NCBI GenBank assembly: GCA_038212375.1
Contig: JBBQUO010000001.1
Span: 1-52,547 of the forward strand
Origin: Minisyncoccia bacterium
GTDB lineage: Bacteria > Patescibacteriota > Minisyncoccia > Phycocordibacterales > Zambryskibacteraceae
Direction of reading: 5' to 3'
DNA length: 52,547 nt
The notes under the pieces: generated by a model
The model's database searches: none
Told to the model about the DNA's origin: nothing
The model's input: only the letters and a program-made list of their open reading frames with translations
Shown here: positions 3,815 to 27,616 of the stretch, in pieces
Layout: the number at the start of each line of letters is the position of its first letter
How positions within the stretch are numbered: position 1 is the first letter of the stretch
Made by a program: the position numbers and the translations under genes

Positions 3815-4300
3815 ATGAAAAAAGTATTACTCAGTATCGCTTTTATATCCCTCCCATTGTCTACCTTTGCAGCGGGAGCAGTGCTCTCAGGGACAGAAGA
3901 TTTCATCAAAAGAATTAGTAGTCTTATCGCGCTTCTCTTGCCAATAGTTGTAGCTCTCGCACTGCTCTATTTCTTTTGGGGGCTTGCACAGTTTGTGCTC
4001 GTCTCAGGAGACGATAAATCCATTGCCCAAGGCAAGAATAAAATGATTTGGGGCGTCATAACACTCTTTGTAATGATTTCTGTTTGGGGACTCGTTGGTT
4101 TATTGCAAAGTGAGCTCGGTATTAGAGCCAATCAATCAGCCCCGACCATTCCCACACTTCCTGGGTTTGGAAGCTCAGCTTCTACTGGGACAAATGGATC
4201 TGGAGCGAGTGGAAATCCTAGCGGGTCTGGTGATACCCCTATTTGTCCACCGTGCAGTAATTTCCCAGATCCAGCTTGCCCAGGGCTCGAGGTGTGCTAG
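3815..4300 (+). CDS. VirB2/TrbC-like mini-protein, paralogue 5, with G/S/P- and Cys-rich C-terminal tail
   Basis: ATG at 3815 (MKKVLLSIAFISLPLSTFAAG). Core LLPIVVALALLYFFWGLAQFVLVSGDDK..GKNKMIWG. The tail ends PICPPCSNFPDPACPGLEVC. The track ORF starting at 3653 is an out-of-context upstream extension. Confidence 0.6.
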   Translation: MKKVLLSIAFISLPLSTFAAGAVLSGTEDFIKRISSLIALLLPIVVALALLYFFWGLAQFVLVSGDDKSIAQGKNKMIWGVITLFVMISVWGLVGLLQSELGIRANQSAPTIPTLPGFGSSASTGTNGSGASGNPSGSGDTPICPPCSNFPDPACPGLEVC

Positions 4301-5172: not shown

Positions 5173-6159
5173 ATGAGTAGACTAACCAAAGGAGCAGGAG
5201 AAACTGATACCGTGTTTATTGCGGCGATCGTTATCTTGCTTATTCTGTCTTGGATCCATCTTGGTGCCACAAGGAGTACTCGCGGGGTTTCAAACCTCAG
5301 TCCGTTTTCAGTTGCAACACCAAGTTCTTCATCTCGTTCCACGCAGCCGTATAATAGTGGAAGCAACAGCACTTTAGATGGCACTAAGTCGCCATGGTAT
5401 GGACTCGTCACGATTGACCTTGGGAGTGCTCCGAGCGAATATGAGCCGTACCAAGAATATATTATTCTCCACGCGAGCGGTGACCTTCAAAAATCTATCA
5501 ATGTATCTGGCTGGCAACTATCCAATGCAAAAGGTGCAAAGGTTTACCAAGTCGGAAGTAATGTCACCCGTTTTCAGTCTGACGTAGCGACCATTCCACT
5601 CGCTGTGCCGCTCTATATCCCAGGAAAGGGAAGTATTGCGAGTCCTGTTATACTCGCGCCAAATGGGCAGGTCATTGTAATTTCCGGTTCCAACACAACT
5701 GCAGGAGGCGTCCTTCCAAGTTTTCGAGAAAACAAATGCACAGCCTATCTCACTCATGATAAAAAAAATCCAGTGACTATTTATCCGAGCGTATACAGCT
5801 ATTGTCCTGCACCGTACAAAGAAGCAGGTGTTTCGGGTCTTGATAATGCATGTAATACGTTTGTTTCGAACCTGAATTCCTGCAGTACTCCAGACTTTGT
5901 AAATAGTGTAAGGACCAATGGGTATCTTGAACCTGGCTATGTCGATACGGTCGGCGGACTTTCTCAGAGCTGTAAAACATATATTCAAAACCACTATAGT
6001 TACAATGGGTGCGTCGCAAGCCATAGTGGTGATAGTGATTTCTACGGCTCAACCTGGCATGTGTACTTGGGTCGCAAATGGGAAATGTGGGCAACTGAAA
6101 GAGAAACGGTTACCCTCCTCGATGCAGATGGAAAAATTGTGAATACGTACTCGTATTAG
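5173..6159 (+). CDS. Membrane-anchored protein with lamin-tail-domain (LTD)-like fold and Cys-rich C-terminal region
   Basis: N-terminal TM helix and S-rich linker. LTD-like segment YGLVTIDLG..YQEYIILHASG..INVSGWQLSNAKG..VILAPNGQVIVISG. The C-terminal half contains 7 Cys. Confidence 0.5.
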   Translation: MSRLTKGAGETDTVFIAAIVILLILSWIHLGATRSTRGVSNLSPFSVATPSSSSRSTQPYNSGSNSTLDGTKSPWYGLVTIDLGSAPSEYEPYQEYIILHASGDLQKSINVSGWQLSNAKGAKVYQVGSNVTRFQSDVATIPLAVPLYIPGKGSIASPVILAPNGQVIVISGSNTTAGGVLPSFRENKCTAYLTHDKKNPVTIYPSVYSYCPAPYKEAGVSGLDNACNTFVSNLNSCSTPDFVNSVRTNGYLEPGYVDTVGGLSQSCKTYIQNHYSYNGCVASHSGDSDFYGSTWHVYLGRKWEMWATERETVTLLDADGKIVNTYSY

Positions 6160-9228: not shown

Positions 9229-9354
9229 AAGGTAACTCCTGTTTTTTAGAAGGATGACAAAGAAACAGTTCTGGGGCAATATTAGCACGTAAATATAGAA
9301 AAGTCAAGTTATAAGCTAGTTCAAAAAAGGGAAGTGTGATAGAGTATTTCTCAT

Positions 9355-9436
9355 GCCGAGGTGGCGGAATTGGTATACGCGCTAGTCTTAGGAACTAGTT
9401 CCGTAAGGATTAGGAGTTCGAGTCTCCTCCTCGGCA
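9355..9436 (+). tRNA. tRNA-Leu (anticodon TAG)
   Basis: Manual cloverleaf: GCCGAGG/CCTCGGC acceptor, CTAGT-CTTAGGA-ACTAG anticodon arm, 13-nt variable arm, AGGAG-TTCGAGT-CTCCT T-arm. CCA is not encoded. Confidence 0.9.
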
Positions 9437-9440
9437 CAAG

Positions 9441-9466
9441 AAAACTGGCTTAGGCCAGTTTTTTGT
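9441..9466 (+). terminator. Terminator after tRNA-Leu(TAG)
   Basis: aaaactggc / ttag / gccagtttt, followed by ttgtt. Confidence 0.7.
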
Positions 9467-9471
9467 TGCAT

Positions 9472-9860
9472 CGAGGAGGAGGCTCGAAGGGCGTAGGTAT
9501 ATCGCAGATAGTAATCTGCGATACCGAGCTGGGGTCGCGGAAATTTTCGAACGACGGCGAGAAAATTATCTGTGAACGAGACTCGTTAGATGCGCGAGGA
9601 GACTCGAAGACCTTGAATATATCGCACGGAACGGAGTGAGTACGATATGAAAGGTGTACAGAGTCTGTAAGTCTCGAGTCTCCAGACTCGAGACATCACA
9701 ACAGAAAAGGCCAAGAGTGAAAGCTCTTGGCCTTTTCTGTTGTGGTTGAGTGGGAGACTTGAAAGGCGCAGGTAATATCGCATATGGTAATGTGCGACGT
9801 CGAGCCAAGGTAGCAAAAATATGTGAGCGACGGCAAATATATTATTCGTGATCGAGTCTC
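9472..9860 (-). repeat. Three degenerate tRNA-sized repeat units (minus sense), each ending in a tRNA-Leu-like T-arm/acceptor segment
   Basis: Units at about 9472-9584, 9591-9649 and 9752-9860 align by eye. Shared blocks are GGAGaCTCGAAg, TATCGCA-hairpin-TGCGA and CGACGGC..ATTAT..GTGA.CGAGaCTC. 9472-9488 is the reverse complement of tRNA-Leu positions TTCGAGTCTCCTCCTCG with one change. Confidence 0.7.
9697..9744. other. 21-bp perfect hairpin (bidirectional terminator-like)
   Basis: cacaacagaaaaggccaagag / tgaaag / ctcttggccttttctgttgtg. Confidence 0.7.
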
Positions 9861-9866
9861 ATTACG

Positions 9867-9895
9867 TTGACAATTTAATATAATATCAGTATTGT
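9867..9895 (+). promoter_or_regulatory. Candidate sigma70-type promoter for the coiled-coil gene
   Basis: TTGACA (9867-9872), 17-nt spacer, TATTGT (9890-9895), about 45 nt upstream of the ATG at 9939. Confidence 0.35.
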
Positions 9896-9938
9896 AATTT
9901 TTGGCAGTTCATTCCATACCTTAAGTCCAGAGGAAATT

Positions 9939-10373
9939 ATGGCACCAGCTAAAAAGGGTACCCCCAAGCAAAGGAAGCTGCGATTTACAAAACTAAACTT
10001 TGACAGACTCGTCTACGAAGTAGAAGAACTGAAAGATGTTTTGAGTGACTTCCGATCTCACGGGATACATTCGCTAGGAGACATCATTGATTTAAAGGCC
10101 AAACTTACAAAGCTTCATGGTGATAAAGAAACTCAGTGGGAAGCTTGTAAAGCCGCTGAAGGTTTCCTAAAATTACAAATTACTGAGTTGAACATGGCTT
10201 TGGTTGATCGCCAGCAAAATGTGGATGCTCTCACTCGTGATTTGCATGACGCAGATTTGATTTTGTCTAGTTTGCGAAAGGAGCTCAACTCATCATTGGC
10301 TGAAGCTCAACAGTTGAGAGATCAACTCAATCAATCGAAGATAGCTATCGTAAGAATTTCAAGTCTTATATAA
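9939..10373 (+). CDS. Hypothetical coiled-coil protein with basic N-terminus
   Basis: 144 aa. N-terminus APAKKGTPKQRKLRF, followed by heptad-like L/E/K/Q-rich sequence. Has its own promoter candidate and terminator. Confidence 0.55.
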   Translation: MAPAKKGTPKQRKLRFTKLNFDRLVYEVEELKDVLSDFRSHGIHSLGDIIDLKAKLTKLHGDKETQWEACKAAEGFLKLQITELNMALVDRQQNVDALTRDLHDADLILSSLRKELNSSLAEAQQLRDQLNQSKIAIVRISSLI

Positions 10374-10407
10374 TTTTACACTCAAGTGGTGTAAAAAAAT
10401 AAGTTTC

Positions 10408-10438
10408 AAGTCCACATCGGAAGATGTGGACTTTTGTT
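10408..10438 (+). terminator. Rho-independent terminator
   Basis: aagtccacatc / ggaa / gatgtggactt, followed by ttgtt. Confidence 0.75.
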
Positions 10439-10474
10439 ATACAAAAAGCTCCTGCGGGTTTTCTTTGTGGTCAC

Positions 10475-10782
10475 AAGTATTTTTCTACTGAAAAATCTCG
10501 CGACCTCGACGCGCAGTATCAAAAAAATCTCCCGCCAGTTTGGTCGGTCACAAATAATTCAATTGTCGCCAGAATTGAATTTTCACGACCCCGACTTGTG
10601 GTTTTGTGTGCACGTGTGGTCAGGAGTTTTTTTCTTTTCGTCAAAAGAAAAATCTCACGACCCAATTGGGATCGGTCACGAATATTCCACGAACCGTCGT
10701 TCGTGGAATTTCTCGACCCCAGCTCGTCATTTCGCTTACTAGCGAAATATGACTGTGCTTTTCGATCCCAACACGTCGCAAA
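10475..10782 (+). repeat. Field of degenerate tRNA-like/short dispersed repeat units (plus sense), convergent with tRNA-Lys
   Basis: Recurring GAAAAWTYTCRCGACCCC-like blocks at about 10490, 10582, 10648 and 10706. 10475-10498 matches 19895-19918 (24 nt, 1 mismatch). 10544-10559 equals 25190-25205 (16 nt exact). 10761-10772 (TTCGATCCCAAC) equals the tRNA-Lys T-loop plus 3' T-stem on the opposite strand. Confidence 0.65.
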
Positions 10783-10843
10783 ACTGTTTGCGACTTGGGT
10801 GCACAAAATAAAAAAGACGGCCTTCAAGCCGCTTTTTATTTTG

Positions 10844-10916
10844 TGCACCCAGTTGGGATCGAACCAACGACCTTATCCTTAAGAGGGATCTGCTCTACCA
10901 GCTGAGCTATGGGTGC
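10844..10916 (-). tRNA. tRNA-Lys (anticodon CTT)
   Basis: The reverse complement folds as GCACCCA..TGGGTGC acceptor, GCTC/GAGC D-stem, CTCTTAA anticodon loop, and GTTGG-TTCGATC-CCAAC T-arm. 73 nt. Confidence 0.9.
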
Positions 10917-10968
10917 AAAGCAAAATTAACTATCAGATAGTAGCCAAATTTTCCTCTTCTTGCAACCC

Positions 10969-12008
10969 TTACGAAACTCTCGTACTCTTGCTGATTGTAA
11001 AATAAATTTCAAAAAGAGTAAGGAATAGATTCAATGTCAGTGGTCCGAGGAGAAAGCCAATCGGTCCAAAAAAGCTTATTCCGCCGAGTATCGAGAGCAA
11101 AATGAGAAATGAATGCAATCTTACATTTCTTCCAATAAGCTTAGGTCCGAGTACATTGTCGATAAGGCCGACAGCAAGCATTCCCCATACCAATAGGCCA
11201 AACGCAGAAGCAGCTTTCCCTACAACAAATAAATAAACAATAGCTGGCAAGATGACTAGAGAAGTTCCTACGCTCGGTACAAGGGCTGCAACTACAGTAA
11301 CAAGGCCCCATAGAACCGCGCTAGGCACTCCAAAGAAGAGAAAGCCAATCGATGTTAATATTCCTTGTACAAGTGCCACCGTGAGGTTTCCTCTGATAAT
11401 AGAATTTGTAGCTATTTCGAGCTTATCAAAAACTATGACGTCGTACACATCACTGAGGGGACTCAGTTCAATAATTTTGTTTTTAATCGTTTTACCGTCC
11501 TTTAAGAGATAATACAGTGCAAGGAGGAAGATAAAGGTATCGACGAGAATTTTGATTGCGTTCGTAAAGAGAGATCCGATGTTTTGAATAAATATATCGA
11601 GACCACTTTTGATGTATTGATCAATATTAACAACAGCACTTTCAGGGATATTGAGATTTACTTTGAGGTTTTTCAGTGCCTCCACTGCATGTCTAGAGAA
11701 CTCAGTTGAGTTACTTGGTGTCGCAAGTGATGTGTAGATTCCTGTAGCTTCTTGGAATATTTGTACTGAAATAAAAGTGAGTGGGATAATAAGGACTATA
11801 AATACCAATAATGTAGTAAGACTTGCTGAGAAAGCAGGACTATTATGAGTTTTTTTAGTATCCGTTTGTGAATGGGGTCAAGTGCAGTTGCAAACACAAC
11901 CGCAAGAAGAAGGGGATACAAAAAAGGTTGAAAAATAAAAACTATCAATCCAAAAATAGCAATGAGTAATGCAAGGAGAAAATATAATTCTGACTTTTGA
12001 TTTTGCAT
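10969..12008 (-). pseudogene. AI-2E family transporter (PerM/UPF0118) split by a -1 frame change at an A7 run
   Basis: ORF 11796-12008 (N-terminal TM1 and ALDPIHKRILKK) and ORF 10969-11808 (remaining TM segments, ..VLWGLVTVVAALVPSVG..GLIDNVLGPKLIG..) lie in different frames. Adding one A to the run at 11850-11856 gives a continuous ..ILKKTHNSPAFSASLTTLLVFIVLIIPL.. Confidence 0.7.
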
Positions 12009-12018
12009 TAGTTTTTTG

Positions 12019-12100: not shown

Positions 12101-12124
12101 ATAATTTAAAAGTGGGATCGATCT

Positions 12125-12137
12125 TTCGATTCCCATC
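12125..12137 (+). repeat. Opposite-strand exact copy of the tRNA-Cys T-loop/3' T-stem, inside that tRNA's terminator hairpin
   Basis: TTCGATTCCCATC matches the tRNA-Cys sense sequence over 13 nt, 22 nt downstream of the tRNA 3' end. Confidence 0.8.
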
Positions 12138-12159
12138 GAAAAAACTACGTTTTTTCTAG

Positions 12160-12231
12160 AGGCGTGGATGGGAATCGAACCCATGAATAAAGCTTTTGCA
12201 GAGCTTCGCCTTACCACTTGGCCACCACGCC
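12160..12231 (-). tRNA. tRNA-Cys (anticodon GCA)
   Basis: GGCGTGG/CCACGCC acceptor, AAGCT-CTGCAAA-AGCTT anticodon arm, ATGGG-TTCGATT-CCCAT T-arm. 72 nt. Confidence 0.9.
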
Positions 12232-12848: not shown

Positions 12849-14347
12849 TATTTTTGGGTGAGCGCAAAGCACTCGATTCTGTCACCAGGCGCTACTTCAA
12901 TTTTTGATTCGAGCATTGCACCGAACTCCTTTCCTTCATCGACACGGCCAATTTTTTCTTTTTGAATCTGAAGTTCACGGATTCTTCCTCGACCGATCTC
13001 AGCGTCACGGCGAATGATTTTTACTTGCTCACCAGAAACAATTTCACCTTCTTCAACTCGACCACCAATAACTTGTTTATCGCGAACTTTTGAAAAGAAT
13101 TTAAGAATTTTTGCTCTTCCGGTCGTTTCTTCTACTTCAACAGAAGGCGTTCTTTCTTTGAGAGCTACTTCGAGCCACTCTGTAATTTTGTAAATTATAT
13201 CAAATTTTTGCACTGGGATTCCAAGGCGTAATGCAAGGCTCTCTGCTTGTGGATCGATCTTGGTATGGAATCCAATAACAATTGGTCTCTCGTGACTCAT
13301 TGCTGCACGAATATCGTTTTCCGATATTGGACCAAGGCCTGACATCACCACTTTCGGCATCATGCGGTCATTTTCTAATTTTCCAATTTCGTAAATCAGT
13401 GCTTCGAGACTTCCTGATGTATCTGCTTTAATAACAATAGGAATAAGTGCCTGACCACTGCTTTGAATTTTCACCGGTTTTTCCTGTAATTTTGCTGTCT
13501 CGGTGTTTTCGAGTACCAGTGCGAGGGCTTCTTTTTTTGTTTTGACGCAAACAAATGCACTCCCAACCGTTGGGGGAATATCCCAGCCAATGATTCTTAT
13601 TGGACTTGAAAATGTAGCCTCATCAATTGGTTTCCCAAGAAAATTTTCTACAATACGAAGAGGGGAAATGCTCCCTCCACATACAGCAAATTCACCTTTG
13701 TGGAGTGTGCCGTTTTTTACAATACCTGATGCAGTAATACCTTTTTTTGTATCGAGGTTGCTTTCAATGATGATTCCAGATGCATCAGCGCCTGCGTCAC
13801 CAGTAAGCTCTTCAAGCTCAGCTGCGAGAAGGACAAGATCGAGGAGCTCAGAGACACCTTCGCCAGTTTTTGCCGAAATAGCTGCCCATGAAATGCTTCC
13901 TCCATATCCTTCGAGAAATATGTCGTTCTCTGCTAAATTTTGTTTTGTCCGATCAACACTTGCTCCTGGTTTATCTATTTTATTTATTGCTACAACGAAG
14001 GGAATAGAATCCTTTTGCAAAACTTTGAGCGCCTCAAGTGTTTGAGGTTTTACGCCGTCTTCTGCTGAGACTACGAGAATACCGAGATCTGCAACGCGTG
14101 CTCCTCGAGCGCGGATAGCACCAAAAGATTCATGTCCTGGTGTATCAAGAAATGTGATTGTGTGCTTCGCTCCATCTTTTGCATCATGGATTACTTCGTA
14201 CGCAGAAAGATGCTGAGTGATACCTCCTGCCTCTGTGTCCACGATATTTGTCTTGCGGATATAATCAAGAAGAGTCGATTTACCATGGTCGATATGACCC
14301 ATAATGGTAACTACAGGAGGTCTGGTGGTCTTAGGTATATCTTTCAT
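12848..14347 (-). CDS. infB: Translation initiation factor IF-2 (short form, no long N-terminal region)
   Basis: 499 aa with G-domain VVTIMGHIDHGKSTLLD, DTPGH and NKID, followed by IF-2 domains. Confidence 0.95.
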   Translation of the reverse strand: MKDIPKTTRPPVVTIMGHIDHGKSTLLDYIRKTNIVDTEAGGITQHLSAYEVIHDAKDGAKHTITFLDTPGHESFGAIRARGARVADLGILVVSAEDGVKPQTLEALKVLQKDSIPFVVAINKIDKPGASVDRTKQNLAENDIFLEGYGGSISWAAISAKTGEGVSELLDLVLLAAELEELTGDAGADASGIIIESNLDTKKGITASGIVKNGTLHKGEFAVCGGSISPLRIVENFLGKPIDEATFSSPIRIIGWDIPPTVGSAFVCVKTKKEALALVLENTETAKLQEKPVKIQSSGQALIPIVIKADTSGSLEALIYEIGKLENDRMMPKVVMSGLGPISENDIRAAMSHERPIVIGFHTKIDPQAESLALRLGIPVQKFDIIYKITEWLEVALKERTPSVEVEETTGRAKILKFFSKVRDKQVIGGRVEEGEIVSGEQVKIIRRDAEIGRGRIRELQIQKEKIGRVDEGKEFGAMLESKIEVAPGDRIECFALTQK

Positions 14348-19828: not shown

Positions 19829-19894
19829 TTTGCTTAGGTGCTTGGGAAGGAATTTCTCATCTTACAGGAGCTGTAGAGGTTTCGTATCGATCAA

Positions 19895-20031
19895 AAGTAT
19901 TTTTCTGCTGAAAAATCTTTCAGCCCTACCTCGGCTCGACAGCCTCCGGTCTTGCGAAAGCTCCAAGTATTCGCTTTCTCACTCACTACGTTCTGTGCGA
20001 TACGCTCAATTTTTTCGAATCCTTCCCGCAA
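19895..20031 (+). repeat. Degenerate tRNA-like repeat unit (plus sense), convergent with tRNA-Tyr
   Basis: 19895-19918 matches 10475-10498. 19974-20012 aligns with the reverse complement of 9600-9650 (shared CGTTCYGTGCGATA core). 20014-20028 (TTCGAATCCTTCCCG) is an exact 15-nt copy of the tRNA-Tyr T-loop/acceptor on the opposite strand. Confidence 0.7.
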
Positions 20032-20051: not shown

Positions 20052-20093
20052 CACATACAAAAAAGAACCCAGAAGGGTTCTTTTTTGTATGTG
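20052..20093 (-). terminator. 19-bp perfect hairpin abutting the tRNA-Tyr 3' end
   Basis: cacatacaaaaaagaaccc / agaa / gggttcttttttgtatgtg. Confidence 0.75.
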
Positions 20094-20176
20094 TGCGCCG
20101 GGAAGGATTCGAACCTTCGTAGGCCGAAGCCGAGAGATTTACAGTCTCTTGTAATTGACCACTCTACCACCGACGC
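20094..20176 (-). tRNA. tRNA-Tyr (anticodon GTA), long variable arm
   Basis: GCGTCGG/CCGGCGC acceptor (one G-U), AGAGA-CTGTAAA-TCTCT anticodon arm, GAAGG-TTCGAAT-CCTTC T-arm. 83 nt. Confidence 0.9.
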
Positions 20177-20297
20177 AATGGAGTCATTCTAACGGAAAAT
20201 GGCTTTTTATCAAGTCCCATCTACGGGATCTCAAAAAGGCAAATTTCACTATTTTTGACTTGCTTTCCTTGCTCAATATGCTATCCTCATAACCACT

Positions 20298-20453
20298 ATG
20301 TCACAGGATAATCTCATCATGCTGCGTAATAAGGACTCAGGAGAGGTCTATTTTACTCGCAAAAATAAGCGTAAAGTTGAGCGCAAAATCGAGCTTAAGA
20401 AGTATAGTAAGAAGCTCAGAAAGCGAGTGACTTTCAAAGAAGCAAAGAAGTAA
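20298..20453 (+). CDS. rpmG: 50S ribosomal protein L33 (51 aa, below the ORF-track cutoff)
   Basis: Manual translation MSQDNLIMLRNKDSGEVYFTRKNKRKVERKIELKKYSKKLRKRVTFKEAKK. It has the L33 signature Y.T.KNKR....klElkKY...lrkh..hkE.K and is the Cys-less form. Confidence 0.85.
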   Translation: MSQDNLIMLRNKDSGEVYFTRKNKRKVERKIELKKYSKKLRKRVTFKEAKK

Positions 20454-20454
20454 C

Positions 20455-20480
20455 AAAAAATCGGCTGATGCCGGTTTTTT
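20455..20480 (+). terminator. Terminator after rpmG
   Basis: aaaaaatcggc / tgat / gccggtttttt. Confidence 0.7.
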
Positions 20481-20516
20481 GCTACAAAAGAATCGGTTCC
20501 TTTGCACTTTGTGGCT

Positions 20517-20531
20517 TTCGATTCCTTCATC
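20517..20531 (+). repeat. Opposite-strand exact copy of the tRNA-Trp T-loop/acceptor 3' segment
   Basis: TTCGATTCCTTCATC matches the tRNA-Trp sense sequence over 15 nt, 54 nt beyond the tRNA 3' end. Confidence 0.8.
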
Positions 20532-20544
20532 CTCTTTAATGCAC

Positions 20545-20580
20545 CAAAACAAAACAGTCTTAAAAGACTGTTTTGTTTTG
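20545..20580 (-). terminator. Terminator hairpin after tRNA-Trp
   Basis: Arms caaaacaaaacagtctt and aagactgttttgttttg are complementary. Confidence 0.7.
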
Positions 20581-20585
20581 TGTTG

Positions 20586-20656
20586 CGGGCGATGAAGGAA
20601 TCGAACCCTCACCAGTGCTTTTGGAGAGCGCTGTTCTACCATTAAACTAATCGCCC
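20586..20656 (-). tRNA. tRNA-Trp (anticodon CCA)
   Basis: GGGCGAT/ATCGCCC acceptor, CTCCAAA anticodon loop (the stem has one C-A mismatch), GAGGG-TTCGATT-CCTTC T-arm. 71 nt. Confidence 0.8.
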
Positions 20657-20668
20657 AGTACAGGCATC

Positions 20669-21610
20669 CTAGCAGATTTTCTGATTCCTTGAAAGTTGCT
20701 TTTTTAGGAACTTTTTTACTAAAGTTTCAATTTTTTTATTGCTAGTTGTAAGGCTAGGGTCAAACCAATGAATTTCTTTGTTCGCCTTGAACCATGTCTT
20801 TTGGCGTTTTACATATTGCCATATTGCACGTTCCAAATCTTCAATCAATTTTTCTTTGGAAATCATGTTTTGAAGATGCTGTGCTATAAATCGGTATTCG
20901 AGTCCGAGTTCGTTCATGCGCTTCCATGAGACACCACCACTATGAAGTTTTTGTACCTCAAGGATCATCCCTTTTTTGATACGAGCAAGGAGGCGAGTGT
21001 GGATCAACTTTTTAAGTACGTCATCCTTCGGTAACAAACCGATATACAAGTTTTCAGTTTTTGATTGTTTGTTGTTTGTCAGTTTTGGAACTTTACCCAG
21101 CGACTCAATAATCTCAAGTGCTCGGATGAGTCTGACTTTGTTTTTGCTATCTATTATTTTTGATCTGGCAGAATCGAGCTTTTGAAGTTTTTTGAATAGT
21201 GCCTCTGTGCTTTCTTTTTCTAACGCTTTTCGTAGCTTTGGATTCGGCGCTACTTGAGGTAGGGAAGTATTACCCAGTAGACTATCGACATAAAATCCAG
21301 TGCCACCGACAATGATAGGAAGTTTTCGTGTTTGTAATATGTTCTCGAGAGCGATCGTTCCATACTTTCGAAAATCATCAGCGCTGAAGGTTTTTTTTGG
21401 GTCTAGAATATCGAGTAGATGATGAGGGATACCTCGCATTTCTTTTTTGGTAATTTTCCCTGTCCCGATATCCATACCTTTGTATACTTGTCTTGAGTCA
21501 GCAGAAATAACCTCGCCATCAAATATTTTTGCGAGGTGTACTCCCAGACCACTTTTGCCAGATGCAGTGGGGCCGACTACGATGAGGATTTTAGGTTTCT
21601 GCACGGGCAT
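20669..21610 (-). CDS. miaA: tRNA dimethylallyltransferase
   Basis: Start at MPVQKPKILIVVGPTASGKSGLG (P-loop), then ISADSRQVYKGMDIGTGK and IPHHLLD. Confidence 0.9.
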   Translation of the reverse strand: MPVQKPKILIVVGPTASGKSGLGVHLAKIFDGEVISADSRQVYKGMDIGTGKITKKEMRGIPHHLLDILDPKKTFSADDFRKYGTIALENILQTRKLPIIVGGTGFYVDSLLGNTSLPQVAPNPKLRKALEKESTEALFKKLQKLDSARSKIIDSKNKVRLIRALEIIESLGKVPKLTNNKQSKTENLYIGLLPKDDVLKKLIHTRLLARIKKGMILEVQKLHSGGVSWKRMNELGLEYRFIAQHLQNMISKEKLIEDLERAIWQYVKRQKTWFKANKEIHWFDPSLTTSNKKIETLVKKFLKKQLSRNQKIC

Positions 21611-23434: not shown

Positions 23435-24940
23435 TTAGAAGAGTTTCTTTTTGAGCTTTTGAATGGTTGATCGGATGTTTCGCTTTGCCGAACTTGTCTT
23501 AGCATATTCGAGCCACTTTTCACTTGGCTTACTCGATGTCCGTGTGATGATTTCTACGATATCTCCATTATGAAGTTCTGTATCGAGTGACACCATTTTT
23601 TTGTTTATTTTTGCTCCTGAAATGTGGTTACCAATATCTGAATGTATTGAATATGCGAAATCAATAGGTGTCGATCCAGTTGGAAGGTCAACTACATCGC
23701 CTTTTGGAGAGAATACGAAAATGCGATATTGAAAGAAGTCTTGTTCCAGATCTTCTCTAAATGTTTCCGTCTTGCCATCACTATGATGGAGTGCAAGGTC
23801 TTCAATCCATCTTGGCACATCACTTTTTTGTGAGGTAGTACTGTCGTCAGTACCTAAGGTATTTCTCTGGGGAAGGAGTTTTGCAACCCAGGCTAAGTTG
23901 CGATCCTCCACTTTGCCTTTATAAGAAATATGCGAGGCTATACCGTACTCAGAGTGCTGATACATGTCCTCCGTTTTGATTTGTACTTCTACTACATTTC
24001 CGTCACCAGTGAAGACTGTGGTATGAAGTGCTTGATATCCATTGGGTTTTGGAAAGGCGATATAGTCTTTGATTCTTCCAGGGAGTGGACGCCATGAACC
24101 ATGTATTACTCCGAGTGCACGATAGCAGTCTGCTACACTCGCTACAATAATGCGGAGCGCAAGCATGTCATGGATTTCTTCGAGATGAATTTTTTTGGTC
24201 TGTGTCTTTTTGTAGAGACTCCAGAGTCCTTTTACTCTATATTCTGTGCGACTATAGAGTACCCCGTCTTTTGCAAGTGCTTTTTTGATCGATTTAAGAA
24301 ACTTCTCAAGACTCTCTACATTTTCATCGTATTGGCGTTTTACTTCACTTTGAAGTTTCTCGTATTCTTTTGGATGCACGTACGGGAATGATAGATCCTC
24401 AAGTTCACGAGAAATCTTGCGGATACCGAGGCGATATGCAGTAGGTGCATAAATTTCGAGCGTTTCCCCCGCGATTCTTTTTTGTTTTTCGCTTGGAACA
24501 AACGAAAGAGTTCGAATGTTATGAAGTCTGTCGGCAAGTTTAATCATAAGCACTCTGATATCTTGTGATGTTGCGATAAAGAGTTTGCGCAAACTTTCGT
24601 TATGACGATCAACGCCATGGTATTTTAATTTTCCGAGCTTGGTTACACCTTCGACAAGAAATAGAATCTCTTCACCGAATTCTTGTCTAATTGTGTTTGT
24701 AGAAATCATCATATCTTCGATGCTGTCGTGAAGAAGTCCAGCAGCGATTGTGGTCGCTCCCATGCCGTATTCTGCCAGTATCTTGGCTACTTCGGACAGG
24801 TGGTTAAAATAGGGTTCACCAGACATGCGCTTGTGCGTTTTGTGAGCTTCCTGCGCAAATTCATAAGCGCGAGTAATAAGTGCCTCGTCAGCAGGGGTAA
24901 GGGGCTCTATGAGGCGGATAATATCTCTAAGGGTAGCCAT
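23435..24940 (-). CDS. rel: Bifunctional (p)ppGpp synthetase/hydrolase (RelA/SpoT homologue; HD + synthetase + TGS, no ACT)
   Basis: HD motif LLHDSIEDM. Synthetase block RVKGLWSLYKK..ALRIIV..DYIAFPKPNGYQALHTTV. TGS block IFVFSPKGDVVDLPTGSTPIDFAYSIH. Confidence 0.9.
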   Translation of the reverse strand: MATLRDIIRLIEPLTPADEALITRAYEFAQEAHKTHKRMSGEPYFNHLSEVAKILAEYGMGATTIAAGLLHDSIEDMMISTNTIRQEFGEEILFLVEGVTKLGKLKYHGVDRHNESLRKLFIATSQDIRVLMIKLADRLHNIRTLSFVPSEKQKRIAGETLEIYAPTAYRLGIRKISRELEDLSFPYVHPKEYEKLQSEVKRQYDENVESLEKFLKSIKKALAKDGVLYSRTEYRVKGLWSLYKKTQTKKIHLEEIHDMLALRIIVASVADCYRALGVIHGSWRPLPGRIKDYIAFPKPNGYQALHTTVFTGDGNVVEVQIKTEDMYQHSEYGIASHISYKGKVEDRNLAWVAKLLPQRNTLGTDDSTTSQKSDVPRWIEDLALHHSDGKTETFREDLEQDFFQYRIFVFSPKGDVVDLPTGSTPIDFAYSIHSDIGNHISGAKINKKMVSLDTELHNGDIVEIITRTSSKPSEKWLEYAKTSSAKRNIRSTIQKLKKKLF

Positions 24941-25187
24941 GTACTCATTCTATACAGTGGAGAAAGAAAGGCAATTGAGATTGTTTTAGGTCACATGTCG
25001 ATTTTGTTCCGTCGAACAAAATCGTTTGCGGCCCCCGATTCAACATTCTTTCTTTTGAAAGAATGTACTTCCTTCTCACAAAAACTATGTGGGCATGCAA
25101 CGAAAGTCGGATGTTTACAGTTTACTTTATGAGTTTATGAGGGTTATAGTTTGCACATGCTTTGTTGCTGTAACGCACAGGAATAGT

Positions 25188-25300
25188 CTTCGGTCACAAA
25201 TAATTTCCTCGCCGACGCTCAAAAATTTTCGCGACCCCACCTCACTTCTGGACTCTACTGAGTCCAGTCTCGCTTTGCTCGAGCGTTCCGGCTCACGAAA
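25188..25300 (+). repeat. Orphan copy of the tRNA-like dispersed repeat (no tRNA gene adjacent)
   Basis: 25190-25205 equals 10544-10559. 25222-25238 (AAAATTTTCGCGACCCC) matches the reverse complement of 9531-9547 at 16 of 17 positions. Followed by the 8-bp hairpin ctggactc/gagtccag (25248-25267). Confidence 0.6.
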
Positions 25301-25321: not shown

Positions 25322-27502
25322 TTATTTCATTAATTTATGGGGATTGTGGTTTGAACATGATTTACTCGAACATCTTTCTGGGATGGTTTTTGTGCCATCC
25401 ATCATGAGGCTTCCGCAGAGGTCGCATATTGCTCCGGTAGGTTTTGCTTTGATTGCGTTCTTGCATTTTGGATAGTTCGTACATGAATAGAAAATGCCGA
25501 AGCGGCCACGGCGTTCCATCATTTCTCCATCAGAGCAAACAGGACATTTCACACCAGTAAGAAGTTTTTTCTTTGCTTCTGGATCTTCTTTTACAAATTT
25601 ACATTTTGGATATCGTCCACATGCAATGAATCTGCCGTATTTTCCATCTCGTTCTACAAGATTAGCTTTACCGCATTCAGGACAGAGCTCGCCAGTATCT
25701 TTTGGTCCCATCATTTCTTCACCATCGAGACTCCTCGCTCCAGTACAGTTAGGGAATGTTTCGCACGAAAGGAAACGGCCATTTTTCCCGAGTTTAATAA
25801 TCATGTCACTTCCACACTTAGGACACTTCCACTGCGGATCAGCCTTTCCAAGGTTCGTAATTTTATTTAATTTATCTTTTGATTTTATATCTTTGAGGAA
25901 AGGTGTATAAAACTCTTTCAGGGTTTTCACATAGTCGCGTTTTCCAAGCGCTATGTCATCGAGCTTGTCTTCCATCTCTGCTGTAAATGAGTCATTGATG
26001 TACTCAAGGAAATTATCTTCGAGGAAAGAGCTTACCACGTCTCCGGTATCAGTTGGGATGAGTGATCGCTGTTCTTTCAAGACATAGCCACGATCAACAA
26101 TAGTTTTGATGATAGATGCGTACGTTGATGGTCTTCCAATGCCACGTTTCTCCAGCTCTTTGACGAGTCCTGCTTCAGAATATCGAGGGAGGGGAGTTGT
26201 CTGTTTCTCTTCAGTATTCAAGCTGAGTAGTTTGAGAGCCGCACCCTTTGCAAGTTTTGGCACTTCGATATCTTCTTGTTTTGCATGCGGGTCTGCCACA
26301 AGCCATCCATCAAAAAGTACCCTCGAACCATTTAGTGAAAAGTCAGGTATCGTATCTGAAGCAATATTTGCAGTTACTTTCGTGCGGAGCATTCTCGCAT
26401 CTTTCATTTGTGATGCGACCGTGCGCGCCCAAATGAGCGCATAGAGTTTTTTTTGCTCGTCGTTATTACCAGCACTCATTTTTGTAATATCAGACGGTCT
26501 CACCGCTTCGTGCGCTTCTTGAGCATTCTTACTCGTTTTTCCAAAGACTCTTTCTTCGAGAAGATTTGGCCCAAATTTTTTATTCACCACTTCAGCAATT
26601 TGCTTCTTTGCTTGAACACTGAGGTTCGTACTATCAGTACGCATGTAGGTAATATATCCAGCTTCATAGAGTTTCTGCGCTACACCCATCGTTCTCGATG
26701 GAGAAAATCCAAGTCTGGAGCTCGCAGCTTGCTGAAGGGTAGAAGTAATAAAGGGGGGTTTTGGTGCCCGTTTTACTTCAGTCTCTTTGATATCTTTGAT
26801 TGCCCAGTGTTCACTTTCTGCAATCTGTACAATGCGGTCAACCTCTTTTTTGTCCCGAGGTTCTTCATCGCACATAAAGGTGAGTTCGGTGTTTTCTTTT
26901 GTTTGAAGAAGTGCTGAGAGGGACCAATATGTTTCAGGAATAAAAGCGCGGATTTCTCGTTCACGTTCCATAATGATGCGAAGTGCGGGAGACTGTACGC
27001 GTCCTGCAGAAAGACCGTACCGCACTTTTTTCCAGATCAGCCCCGAAAGGTCATATCCTACAAGTCGATCAAGTACGCGACGTGCTTCCTGTGCAATCTT
27101 GAGGTTATCGTCGATCTCGCGAGGATGCTTCATAGCTTCTGTTACTGCATCTTTCGTAATTTCATGAAAGACGACACGCTTTGGTTTGCGCAGTCCCACT
27201 GCTTGTGCAATGTGCCAGGCGATCGCTTCTCCTTCACGGTCGGGGTCAGTCGCGAGGATGACATCTTCTGCTCCTGCTGCGAGTTTTTTGATCTCACTGA
27301 CTACTTTCTCCTTTCCTTTTGAAATTTCATAATGCGGCACAAAACCAGCTTCGATGTCGATAGCTTTTTTGTTCGACTTTGGAAGGTCTCTGACATGACC
27401 AATAGACGCGACTACATCGTACTCGTCGTTGAGATATTTTGAAATTGTTTTTGCCTTTGCCGGAGACTCAACAATCAATAATTTTTTTCCGTGTTTTGCC
27501 AT
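25322..27502 (-). CDS. topA: DNA topoisomerase I
   Basis: Start at MAKHGKKLLIVESPAKAKTISKYL (27502). TOPRIM and Topo IA core, with several C-terminal Cys4 zinc ribbons. Confidence 0.95.
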   Translation of the reverse strand: MAKHGKKLLIVESPAKAKTISKYLNDEYDVVASIGHVRDLPKSNKKAIDIEAGFVPHYEISKGKEKVVSEIKKLAAGAEDVILATDPDREGEAIAWHIAQAVGLRKPKRVVFHEITKDAVTEAMKHPREIDDNLKIAQEARRVLDRLVGYDLSGLIWKKVRYGLSAGRVQSPALRIIMEREREIRAFIPETYWSLSALLQTKENTELTFMCDEEPRDKKEVDRIVQIAESEHWAIKDIKETEVKRAPKPPFITSTLQQAASSRLGFSPSRTMGVAQKLYEAGYITYMRTDSTNLSVQAKKQIAEVVNKKFGPNLLEERVFGKTSKNAQEAHEAVRPSDITKMSAGNNDEQKKLYALIWARTVASQMKDARMLRTKVTANIASDTIPDFSLNGSRVLFDGWLVADPHAKQEDIEVPKLAKGAALKLLSLNTEEKQTTPLPRYSEAGLVKELEKRGIGRPSTYASIIKTIVDRGYVLKEQRSLIPTDTGDVVSSFLEDNFLEYINDSFTAEMEDKLDDIALGKRDYVKTLKEFYTPFLKDIKSKDKLNKITNLGKADPQWKCPKCGSDMIIKLGKNGRFLSCETFPNCTGARSLDGEEMMGPKDTGELCPECGKANLVERDGKYGRFIACGRYPKCKFVKEDPEAKKKLLTGVKCPVCSDGEMMERRGRFGIFYSCTNYPKCKNAIKAKPTGAICDLCGSLMMDGTKTIPERCSSKSCSNHNPHKLMK

Positions 27503-27616
27503 AGAATCGTTATCATTAGTACTATACCTCAGAATTGAATGCAAATTGTGGCTGGTATGTGTGTGCAAAAGAAAATGCACACACAGCAATTTCTTGCGGT
27601 GCGTGCAGGGTGTTTC

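Follow-up and report, generated by a model that had tools for sequence, protein, structure and literature searches.

Inverted copies of tRNA 3' ends in a Patescibacteria genome are probably the left arms of tRNA-linked repeat units with structured cores

In a 52,547-nt stretch of DNA from a Minisyncoccia bacterium (Patescibacteriota; GenBank assembly GCA_038212375.1, contig JBBQUO010000001.1, positions 1 to 52,547 of the forward strand), referred to here as the window, five of the seven tRNA genes are followed by a short inverted copy of their own 3' end. Analysis of these copies, in the window and in a comparison set of related loci, demonstrates that the pattern is real, tRNA-specific and class-wide. 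The inverted copies are probably the left arms of tRNA-linked repeat elements, in which a structured core lies between two copies of the tRNA 3' end, one inverted and one direct. Such elements would be a previously undescribed Patescibacteria counterpart of the tRNA-linked repeats (TLRs) that have been reported in Escherichia coli since 1978.

A preliminary description of this DNA, made from its letters, had reported that window positions 9472-9488 (CGAGGAGGAGGCTCGAA), downstream of tRNA-Leu(TAG), are the reverse complement of the tRNA segment TTCGAGTCTCCTCCTCG with one change, and this was verified exactly; the change, A to G, would pair as G-U in RNA, as had been stated for this example. The last 26 nt of each tRNA were then used to find the longest exact inverted match within 150 nt downstream. 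For tRNA-Leu(TAG) this match is 10 nt long at an offset of 35 nt (16/17 counting the single mismatch), and its flank contains a second inverted copy of 13 nt at an offset of 159 nt. A 12-nt exact match was found for tRNA-Lys(CTT), together with a separate 9-nt complement of the acceptor 3' strand, and exact matches of 13, 15 and 15 nt were found for tRNA-Cys, tRNA-Tyr and tRNA-Trp. These lengths (10-15 nt exact) and distances (22-71 nt beyond the tRNA 3' end) agree with those first given, as does the finding of no inverted match within 150 nt downstream of tRNA-Leu(TAA) or tRNA-Leu(CAA). All matches in the window begin at the complement of T54 (end ...TCGAA) and run through the T-stem 3' strand into the acceptor, the segment named in the preliminary description. 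When each downstream stretch was shuffled 2000 times, the observed length was reached by 0 shuffles for Lys, Cys, Tyr and Trp and by two for Leu(TAG), bearing out the earlier statement that the matches are not due to chance.

The window has a G+C content of 41% and carries housekeeping genes for a short IF-2 of 499 amino acids, ClpB, MiaA, ParB and cysteine desulfurase. The closest IF-2 relatives are 44-58% identical, all of them from metagenome-assembled Paceibacterota or Parcubacteria; an exact-protein lookup of the window ClpB gave no match. Generality beyond the window had been set as a test beforehand. The comparison set comprised 80 IF-2-centred Paceibacteria loci (labelled with L001-type names), one genome per species, in which every tRNA was scanned, giving a sample skewed towards tRNAs near IF-2. 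In these loci, an exact inverted match of at least 10 nt to the 3' 26 nt was detected in 63/294 downstream flanks and in one upstream flank. With the window added (n = 276 tRNAs), a complement of T54-65 with at least 11 of 12 positions matching was detected within 200 nt downstream of 57 tRNAs, compared with 0/276 upstream and 4/276 when a tRNA was paired with the flank of another. The pattern was found for Cys, Lys, Tyr, Trp, Met and Asp tRNAs and for three Leu tRNAs, so that its proposed generality held, and a chance origin is excluded by the shuffles together with the upstream and non-cognate controls. Locus L081 (1-987), a 987-nt contig of public run SRR19962015, is 100% identical to window 20150-21136, indicating that the same strain is present in that sample.

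The downstream regions show the same order in dozens of units: tRNA, terminator, inverted acceptor 3' strand, hairpin, inverted T-stem/T-loop, core, and direct copy of the 3' end. The 5' element of the unit is the complement of the acceptor 3' strand and of the next two gene nucleotides (e.g. GTGCGCCGG). It is followed by AG, a small hairpin and CG(U/A), then by the complement of the T-stem 3' strand and T-loop (e.g. GAGGGATTCGAA), and then by a structured core of 60-130 nt. At its end the unit repeats up to 21 nt of the tRNA in direct orientation, from a point within the T-loop through to the 3' end, and another terminator often comes next. In the loci set, 47 direct repeats covering 14 nt or more of a tRNA 3' end were found, all within 400 nt downstream and none further away. 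These direct copies, or right arms, are usually full length in relatives, and 14/27 units with a class B core (see below) have a right arm identical to the tRNA at 12/12 positions. In the window, direct copies were found at 10658-10674 (Lys), 9675-9683 (Leu) and 12113-12120 (Cys). Here the Lys right arm matches at 15/17 positions, those of the second Leu unit (U2) and of Cys have shrunk to 9 and 8 nt, and those of Tyr and Trp are lost. Because most right arms in the window have already decayed, only the inverted copies stood out. The preliminary description missed the downstream direct copy, the structured core between the copies, and the presence of three units, rather than one, behind tRNA-Leu(TAG) (U1 to U3, Table 1). 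Its argument that the usual duplication footprint is absent because the copies are inverted fails, since the tRNA 3' end is repeated in direct orientation as well. Terminator-like sites follow 25/95 cores, compared with 24/400 random windows and 75/300 of the tRNAs themselves.

In the structural model derived from this order, the left and right arms pair with each other and so re-create the coaxial acceptor/T-stem helix of the adjacent tRNA; the core takes the position of the T-loop, and a single hairpin stands for the D and anticodon arms. Folding of the Lys unit alone (10656-10806, minus strand; dG -70.9, z -8.2) gave the structure that the model predicts, a tRNA-like fold made up of an acceptor-like stem, a single arm and a lengthened T-stem that runs into the core. 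U1 is predicted to fold on the same tRNA-like plan, more weakly (z -3.5) because its right arm is decayed. The structural partner of the inverted segment is more likely the downstream direct copy than the tRNA itself. No open reading frame (ORF) was found inside the units. The seven tRNA genes of the window (ARAGORN, Rfam) all end in ..AC followed by an A-rich trailer, and 0/7 encode CCA, so that endonucleolytic 3' trimming and CCA addition would be required for their maturation.

Comparison of the left arms with their tRNAs gave 11 mismatches of the G-U type, 11 of the A-C type and 27 others. There is no G-U bias, and the wobble pairing noted for tRNA-Leu(TAG) is not a general property. The inverted copy extends into the gene trailer (AC, then an A-tract) and not into the CCA end; because the trailer is copied instead of CCA, it mirrors the gene or precursor and not the mature tRNA. 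For the same reason, primer-binding-site-like pairing with the mature tRNA and copying by reverse transcription were ruled out. A T-box was ruled out as well, since the complementarity is to the T-arm and acceptor and not to the anticodon and NCCA. The preliminary description had suggested that read-through transcripts fold back on the tRNA. By this account the inverted copy acts in cis and serves regulation or quality control by pairing with the tRNA at its T-loop and 3' half, and the downstream direct copy is a competitor. It is consistent with the near-perfect complementarity to the tRNA even where the right arm is decayed (15/15 for Tyr and Trp, 13/13 for Cys), and in the joint minimum-energy fold of tRNA-Leu and U1 the inverted copy does pair, across the terminator, with the 3' half of the tRNA. 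However, the units are stable when folded alone, stand-alone units without a tRNA exist, and the mismatches lack a G-U bias. In addition, the complement enters the trailer and not CCA, and consists mostly of trailer in the class of units based on the extreme 3' end. The terminator U-tract precedes the inverted copy, so that most tRNA transcripts would never include it, and the pairing would destroy the tRNA fold. Fold-back is thus very unlikely to be the role of the copies, although the read-through transcripts of that suggestion come close to the reading best supported here.

The cores belong to at least two classes, A and B, both of them three-way junctions with strong covariation that fold on the tRNA-sense strand. 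A regular-expression scan for class B cores proved too noisy, and covariance models were used in its place, R1 for class B (alignments A1 to A3) and R2 for class A (alignment A5). Class B has three helices: P1 is made by the arms, P2 is long and variable, and the short P3 is capped by a UGUAA-type loop. RNAalifold detected compensatory changes at 20/22 pairs, and in 44 matches 94.5% of cells are paired with 134 double changes, a result equalled by 0/500 shuffles. Besides GAA, only two elements are invariant, a UAC immediately 5' of P3 and a GUA within its loop, which suggests that the two could pair as a 3-bp pseudoknot (e.g. window 9655-9672). Class A is characterized by the motifs AGCCGSAG..GAGNCGGGGUCG and by a stem GGUCG/UGACC containing an invariant G-U pair (13/13 sequences), with compensatory changes at 15/21 pairs. 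In class A cores with the loop CGACGG (e.g. window 9533-9557), GUCG is located just 5' of the hairpin, the same topology as in the putative class B pseudoknot. No Rfam 15 family matched the units or either core class at gathering or relaxed thresholds, and only tRNAs were returned. A hammerhead or other small ribozyme was rejected, as the junction sequences do not fit by inspection and there is no Rfam match. Classes A and B are candidates for two new RNA families in Rfam.

G-U pairs are frequent and A-C mismatches rare in the core helices of both classes, and since the G-U pairs would be A-C mismatches on the other strand, the tRNA-sense strand is the one that folds. This bears on another suggestion of the preliminary description, that the copies mark convergent decoy RNAs, that is, tRNA-like RNAs transcribed from the opposite strand and sharing a bidirectional terminator with the tRNA. 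The terminators do have A- and U-tracts on both sides, and the Lys unit has a good fold on the opposite strand too (dG -65.0, z -9.2). The sense strand of this unit is nevertheless ~6 kcal/mol more stable, the invariant G-U pair and ~15 further G-U pairs of the cores would turn into A-C mismatches, and the hairpin occupies the place of the D/anticodon domain only on the sense strand. ARAGORN and the Rfam tRNA model detected only the seven annotated tRNAs and no opposite-strand tRNA or pseudogene, and the sequence on the 5' side of the opposite-strand copy fails to complete a T-stem. Convergent decoys are therefore disfavoured, and we give them almost no credence.

Core-only models detected 44 class B (R1) and 56 class A (R2) cores in the 1.2 Mb formed by the window and the comparison set (81 loci), with at least one core in 44/81 loci. 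A same-strand tRNA is located no more than 450 nt upstream of 88/100 cores, a region that amounts to ~5% of the searched strand space. Because the models contain no arm sequence beyond GAA, this association is not a search artefact. The 5' flank of the detected cores complements the adjacent tRNA from T54, and the 3' flank repeats the tRNA 3' end.

In canonical units a single unbroken long palindrome runs from the tRNA 3' end through the A-tract, GC hairpin and U-tract to the inverted copy. Together with the contiguous inverted copy of ~21 nt in U1, this is consistent with a mutational by-product devoid of function, in which intrastrand template switching extends palindromic terminators and copies the tRNA 3' end in inverted orientation. 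Such an origin is highly improbable, as it leaves unexplained the conserved hairpin placed exactly at the acceptor/T-stem boundary with its AG and CGU flanks, the constant stop at T54, the covarying cores and the downstream direct copy.

Units occur singly or in arrays of two to four. The arrays include those of the window, with three units behind tRNA-Leu(TAG) (A, B, A) and four behind tRNA-Lys, a unit of class A followed by one of class B in locus L020, and three units in L027, each with its own terminator. Distal units of an array match the tRNA less well. Overall, units accompany roughly a quarter to a third of the sampled tRNAs, with patchy presence, in genomes that are tiny and have little tolerance for junk. 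The L027 array (13079-13650, plus strand) lies behind tRNA-Leu(TAG), and its distal, well-preserved class B unit has arms from an L004-type tRNA-Leu(TAG) allele, unlike the resident gene. In some young-looking units (L075, L045, L052, L043) the trailer is duplicated too. In a second arrangement, a class A core comes immediately behind a lengthened terminator hairpin. The core has a 5' flank complementary to the final few nucleotides of the tRNA and to the trailer, and a 3' flank that repeats them (e.g. CTTTGTGCG .. CACAAAG). A stand-alone class B unit with a perfect 7-bp acceptor-like stem and T-stem arms of the tRNA-Leu(TAA) type was found in L033 (~4100-4260, minus strand), with no tRNA gene on the whole 6.6-kb contig.

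Arm decay was followed in class B units. One arm may decay while the other stays perfect. An ungapped count of the arm-arm helix gave 7 G-U versus 3 A-C. The arms look as if they were perfect at birth and decayed later, with the core helices remaining paired. In the closest pair of loci, L044 and L055 (83% identity), the unit is kept in one and only its first few nucleotides are left in the other. A comparison of empty and filled sites was set aside, as the only exact relative (L081) is the same strain and L044/L055 show just loss or decay. Core identity is ~0.6 (0.59-0.61) within a locus or genome and 0.54-0.59 between genomes. Cores of one genome are thus no more alike than those of different genomes, which gives no sign of a recent burst, and a recent repeat burst was rejected. 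Two pattern scans of a viral contig collection returned 89 stretches, of which the covariance models confirm one (L086). A phage or island att footprint was also rejected, since there are no long-range repeats (all 47 lie within 400 nt) and a single viral stretch was confirmed.

These data can also be read as the traces of small mobile or integrative elements, non-autonomous and targeting the T-loop or 3' end of tRNA genes. On insertion the unit would bring a replacement 3' end and terminator and displace the original 3' end downstream. All of its circular form (3' end, terminator, inverted arm and core) would be base-paired, as in the folded single-strand sites of integron cassettes or CTX phage. 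T-loop integrases classically leave behind a direct repeat that reaches from T-loop to 3' end (Ms6, PMC1762012). Successive units of an array differ in core class and terminator and the distal ones are more decayed, so that the arrays look like serial insertion. The patchy presence, in 44/81 loci and behind roughly a third of tRNAs of any species, the loss between L044 and L055, the units away from tRNAs, the use of the extreme 3' end and trailer as the repeat in the second arrangement, and the arms decaying from a perfect state beside still-paired core helices all point the same way. On the other hand, the units are not linked to any recombinase, transposase or reverse transcriptase, and no large element is flanked by tRNA 3' repeats, none of which lies beyond 400 nt. 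Within-genome copies are not more alike, the viral scans yielded one true match, and a circle of 150-250 bp is small for double-stranded recombination. Rewriting of both arms for each tRNA is left unexplained, and we know of no mechanism that writes inverted and direct copies of a target around a foreign core. Mobility, which is compatible as an account of origin with the TLR-like reading, is possible but doubtful.

The reading that we consider probable, a Patescibacteria counterpart of the TLRs, suggests the following course. The arms would be copied from the neighbouring tRNA gene at the birth of the unit and decay afterwards. By analogy with E. coli, the unit would be transcribed by read-through of the tRNA terminator. 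Because its terminal helix and 3' end are those of a tRNA, the transcript would be trimmed by tRNA end-processing enzymes, presumably by RNase Z followed by CCA addition in these CCA-less genes and by RNase P at the 5' side, releasing a stable structured small RNA.

Several observations weigh against this reading. A strong terminator lies between tRNA and unit, making transcription of the unit dependent on read-through. The arm-arm helix of class B units shows little compensatory change relative to the tRNA, and often one side is decayed, as would be expected if many copies are under weak selection or none. Of the right arms in the window, four out of five are degenerate, and these units may be dead. 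Most E. coli TLRs are without known function, except for three units in rRNA operons (PMC8144298). Finally, the units of the candidate phyla radiation (CPR) described here are not members of the E. coli family RtT (Rfam RF00391), and the link to E. coli is one of architecture, with no detectable similarity of the cores. The RtT model gave no match at E values up to 10 in window 9300-10950 or up to 1 in six loci, and in the reverse test R1 and R2 scored at most 8 bits on the E. coli tyrT locus.

A bolder combination of these ideas treats the units as self-propagating non-coding elements addressed to tRNA genes, in which the cores are functional RNA or single-stranded DNA (ssDNA) modules and the arms a programmable address, the E. 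coli TLRs being degenerate relatives. Two or more unrelated core classes, a likely loop-junction pseudoknot, and ligand binding, protein binding or catalysis by the core would belong to it, as would insertion or duplication guided by pairing with the segment from T54 to the 3' end copied from the target tRNA gene. Taken jointly, these propositions are unlikely to hold.

The features of the window are collected in Table 1. The two class A cores at 24989-25278 are located between a topA-like ORF (25322-27589, minus strand) and an ORF at 23435-24940 (minus strand), with no tRNA within 600 nt, and their flanks (GCAGGA .. TCCTGTGC) resemble a decayed T-stem/acceptor pair. A module of the tRNA-Tyr unit, GCGAATACTTGGAGCTTTCGCAAGACC, recurs in locus L012 (~5600-5690). 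Between the convergent unit arrays of tRNA-Leu(TAG) and tRNA-Lys lies a lone 144-aa coiled-coil ORF (9939-10373, plus strand) with a weak DUF7653 match below the Pfam threshold, a promoter-like site at 9867-9895 and a terminator at 10408-10433. The gene of an AI-2E-family transporter downstream of tRNA-Leu(TAA), on the minus strand, is apparently split into two ORFs, 11796-12008 and 10969-11808 (region noted: 12008-12017 and 10969-12008). The Pfam match of the larger ORF begins at profile position 56, and a frameshift or sequencing error is possible.

Table 1. tRNA genes, arms, cores and terminators of the units in the window
Feature	Position	Strand	Detected by
tRNA-Leu(TAG) gene, no encoded CCA; T54 to 3' end copied in downstream units	9355..9437	+	ARAGORN, Rfam
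Terminator hairpin of tRNA-Leu(TAG), AAAACTGGC..GCCAGTTTTTT	9441..9464	+	sequence reading
U1 left arm, inverted copy of tRNA-Leu 3' 21 nt, contiguous over ~21 nt; 9472-9488 matches 16/17	9464..9488	+	
U1 class A core, three-way junction with GAGCTGGGGTCG, hairpin loop CGACGG	9486..9577	+	R2, 81.1 bits
U1 right arm, decayed, CGAGACTCG, predicted to pair with left arm	9577..9585	+	fold
U2 left arm CGAGGAGACTCGAA, 13-nt exact complement of tRNA-Leu T-loop/T-stem	9595..9608	+	
U2 class B core: P2, UACAG junction, P3 with UGUAA loop	9606..9675	+	R1, 51.8 bits
U2 right arm, direct copy CGAGTCTCC of tRNA-Leu T-loop and T-stem 3' strand	9675..9683	+	
Second terminator hairpin, closing U1 and U2	9700..9741	+	sequence reading
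U3, whole unit; decayed left arm GGGAGACTTGAA at 9752-9763	9752..9863	+	
U3 class A core; right arm CGAGTCTC	core 9761..9853; right arm 9853..9860	+	R2, 68.8 bits
tRNA-Lys(CTT) gene	10843..10916	-	ARAGORN, Rfam
tRNA-Lys terminator hairpin; stem lengthened by pairing of tRNA 3' end with 10796-10804	10805..10842	-	
Lys left arm, part 1: acceptor 3' strand complement and AC, GTGCACCCA, 10796-10804	whole arm 10761..10804	-	
Lys left arm, part 2: AG, hairpin 10775-10794, CGT, T-stem/T-loop complement GTTGGGATCGAA at 10761-10772		-	
Lys class A core	10674..10763	-	R2, 84 bits
Lys right arm, direct T-loop-to-acceptor copy CGATCCCAATTGGGTCG, 15/17	10658..10674	-	
Three more decayed tandem class A cores: 10618-10663, 10546-10599, 10469-10533	10469..10663	-	R2, 27-38 bits
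tRNA-Cys (gene 12159-12231) minimal unit; left arm GATGGGAATCGAA at 12125-12137, 13/13	12113..12137	-	
tRNA-Cys unit: partner CGATCCCA at 12113-12120; core shrunk to AGAT		-	
tRNA-Tyr composite unit (gene 20093-20176, terminator 20053-20092); left arm CGGGAAGGATTCGAA at 20014-20028, 15/15	19861..20028	-	
tRNA-Tyr unit: B-like frame ending CTACAGCTCCTGTAAG (19861-19876), nested class A core 19889-19954; no clear right arm		-	
tRNA-Trp left arm GATGAAGGAATCGAA, 15/15 (gene 20585-20656, terminator 20545-20580)	20517..20531	-	
tRNA-Trp core remnant, heavily deleted, reaching ~20480		-	
Two class A cores not beside a tRNA, 25192-25278 and 24989-25079	24989..25278	-	R2, 58.3 and 27.9 bits

The closest known system is that of the E. 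coli TLRs, of which 22 units are known at ten loci, 1-5 per locus; the last 18-19 bp of each exactly match the 3' end of the preceding tRNA or rRNA (PMC8144298). The tandem counts of the CPR units also fall within 1-5 per locus. The TLRs of rRNA operons lie between two terminators and are read-through products that are processed, and the repeat was proposed by those authors to be a processing signal for a nuclease that matures the upstream RNA (PMC8144298). We examined the E. coli tRNA loci (L171, L172 and L175) for an inverted arm. In tyrT/tyrV of E. coli K-12 (L171, 1286000-1288500), each 178-bp repeat contains the direct copy AATCCTTCCCCCACCACCA, and ~85 nt upstream of it lies GGGGAAGGAT-GAGAA, complementary at 13/15 positions to TTCGAATCCTTCCCC of tRNA-Tyr. 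The closing helix of the RtT model is this inverted arm paired with the direct copy. The arm in the arg operon, GGGAGGAT, matches tRNA-Arg, and the arm in the lys operon has kept the Tyr-like GAAGGAT, a poorer match to tRNA-Lys. The plan of inverted arm, core and direct copy is therefore already present in the curated RtT family, and we found no paper that stresses it. E. coli and CPR units alike lie directly downstream of a same-strand tRNA and contain a copy of its 3' end, and in both an inverted arm derived from the T-stem 3' strand and the start of the acceptor pairs with that copy, in E. coli tRNA-specifically at Tyr and Arg. The CPR units differ from RtT in their cores, of at least two classes, in a much longer left arm (all 21 nt, with the complements of the T-loop and of the whole acceptor strand, interrupted by a hairpin), and in the terminator that separates tRNA and unit. 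CCA lies outside the CPR repeat because the tRNA genes do not encode it, and the host phyla are far apart.

The rrA, rrB and rrF RNAs of the TLR family share with the CPR units the order of stable RNA gene, first terminator, unit ending in a 3'-end copy, and second terminator, but are located behind 5S rRNA instead of tRNAs, with no detectable homology. They bind Hfq and CsrA; to our knowledge, nothing like this has been described for Patescibacteria. Searches of the literature on CPR tRNA-like RNAs, inverted repeats downstream of tRNAs and miniature integrative elements found nothing relevant.

Tyrosine-integrase att duplications are exemplified by mycobacteriophage Ms6, whose 26-bp attP core overlaps a tRNA 3' end including the T-loop (PMC1762012). 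In contrast to these, the CPR repeats enclose only 130-250 bp with no integrase, and the enclosed segment includes the site in inverted orientation as well as a folded core that covaries. No large island bounded by tRNA 3' repeats was found in the loci set. Annotators and island finders that take tRNA 3' duplications as att sites would be misled by the units. Integron attC sites and the attP(+) site of CTX phage have inverted arms around a structured middle, a structure conserved more than its sequence, one strand that folds, and arrays ending in a short direct repeat. The CPR units differ from these, as generally understood, in that no integron-type or Xer-type recombinase is linked to them and in that their arms copy a tRNA gene and not a fixed core site; any ssDNA form of them is hypothetical.

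Entry of the two candidate families into Rfam would end the non-annotation of such regions. With a predicted tRNA-like terminal helix, a possible pseudoknot and dual terminators, the CPR units make the old question of the TLRs testable. An unrelated, much better-structured version of the TLR plan in Patescibacteria would point to a recurrent solution and not an enterobacterial accident. The CPR units would then be not a new kind of system but a widespread, well-structured new instance of one that has been unexplained for decades.

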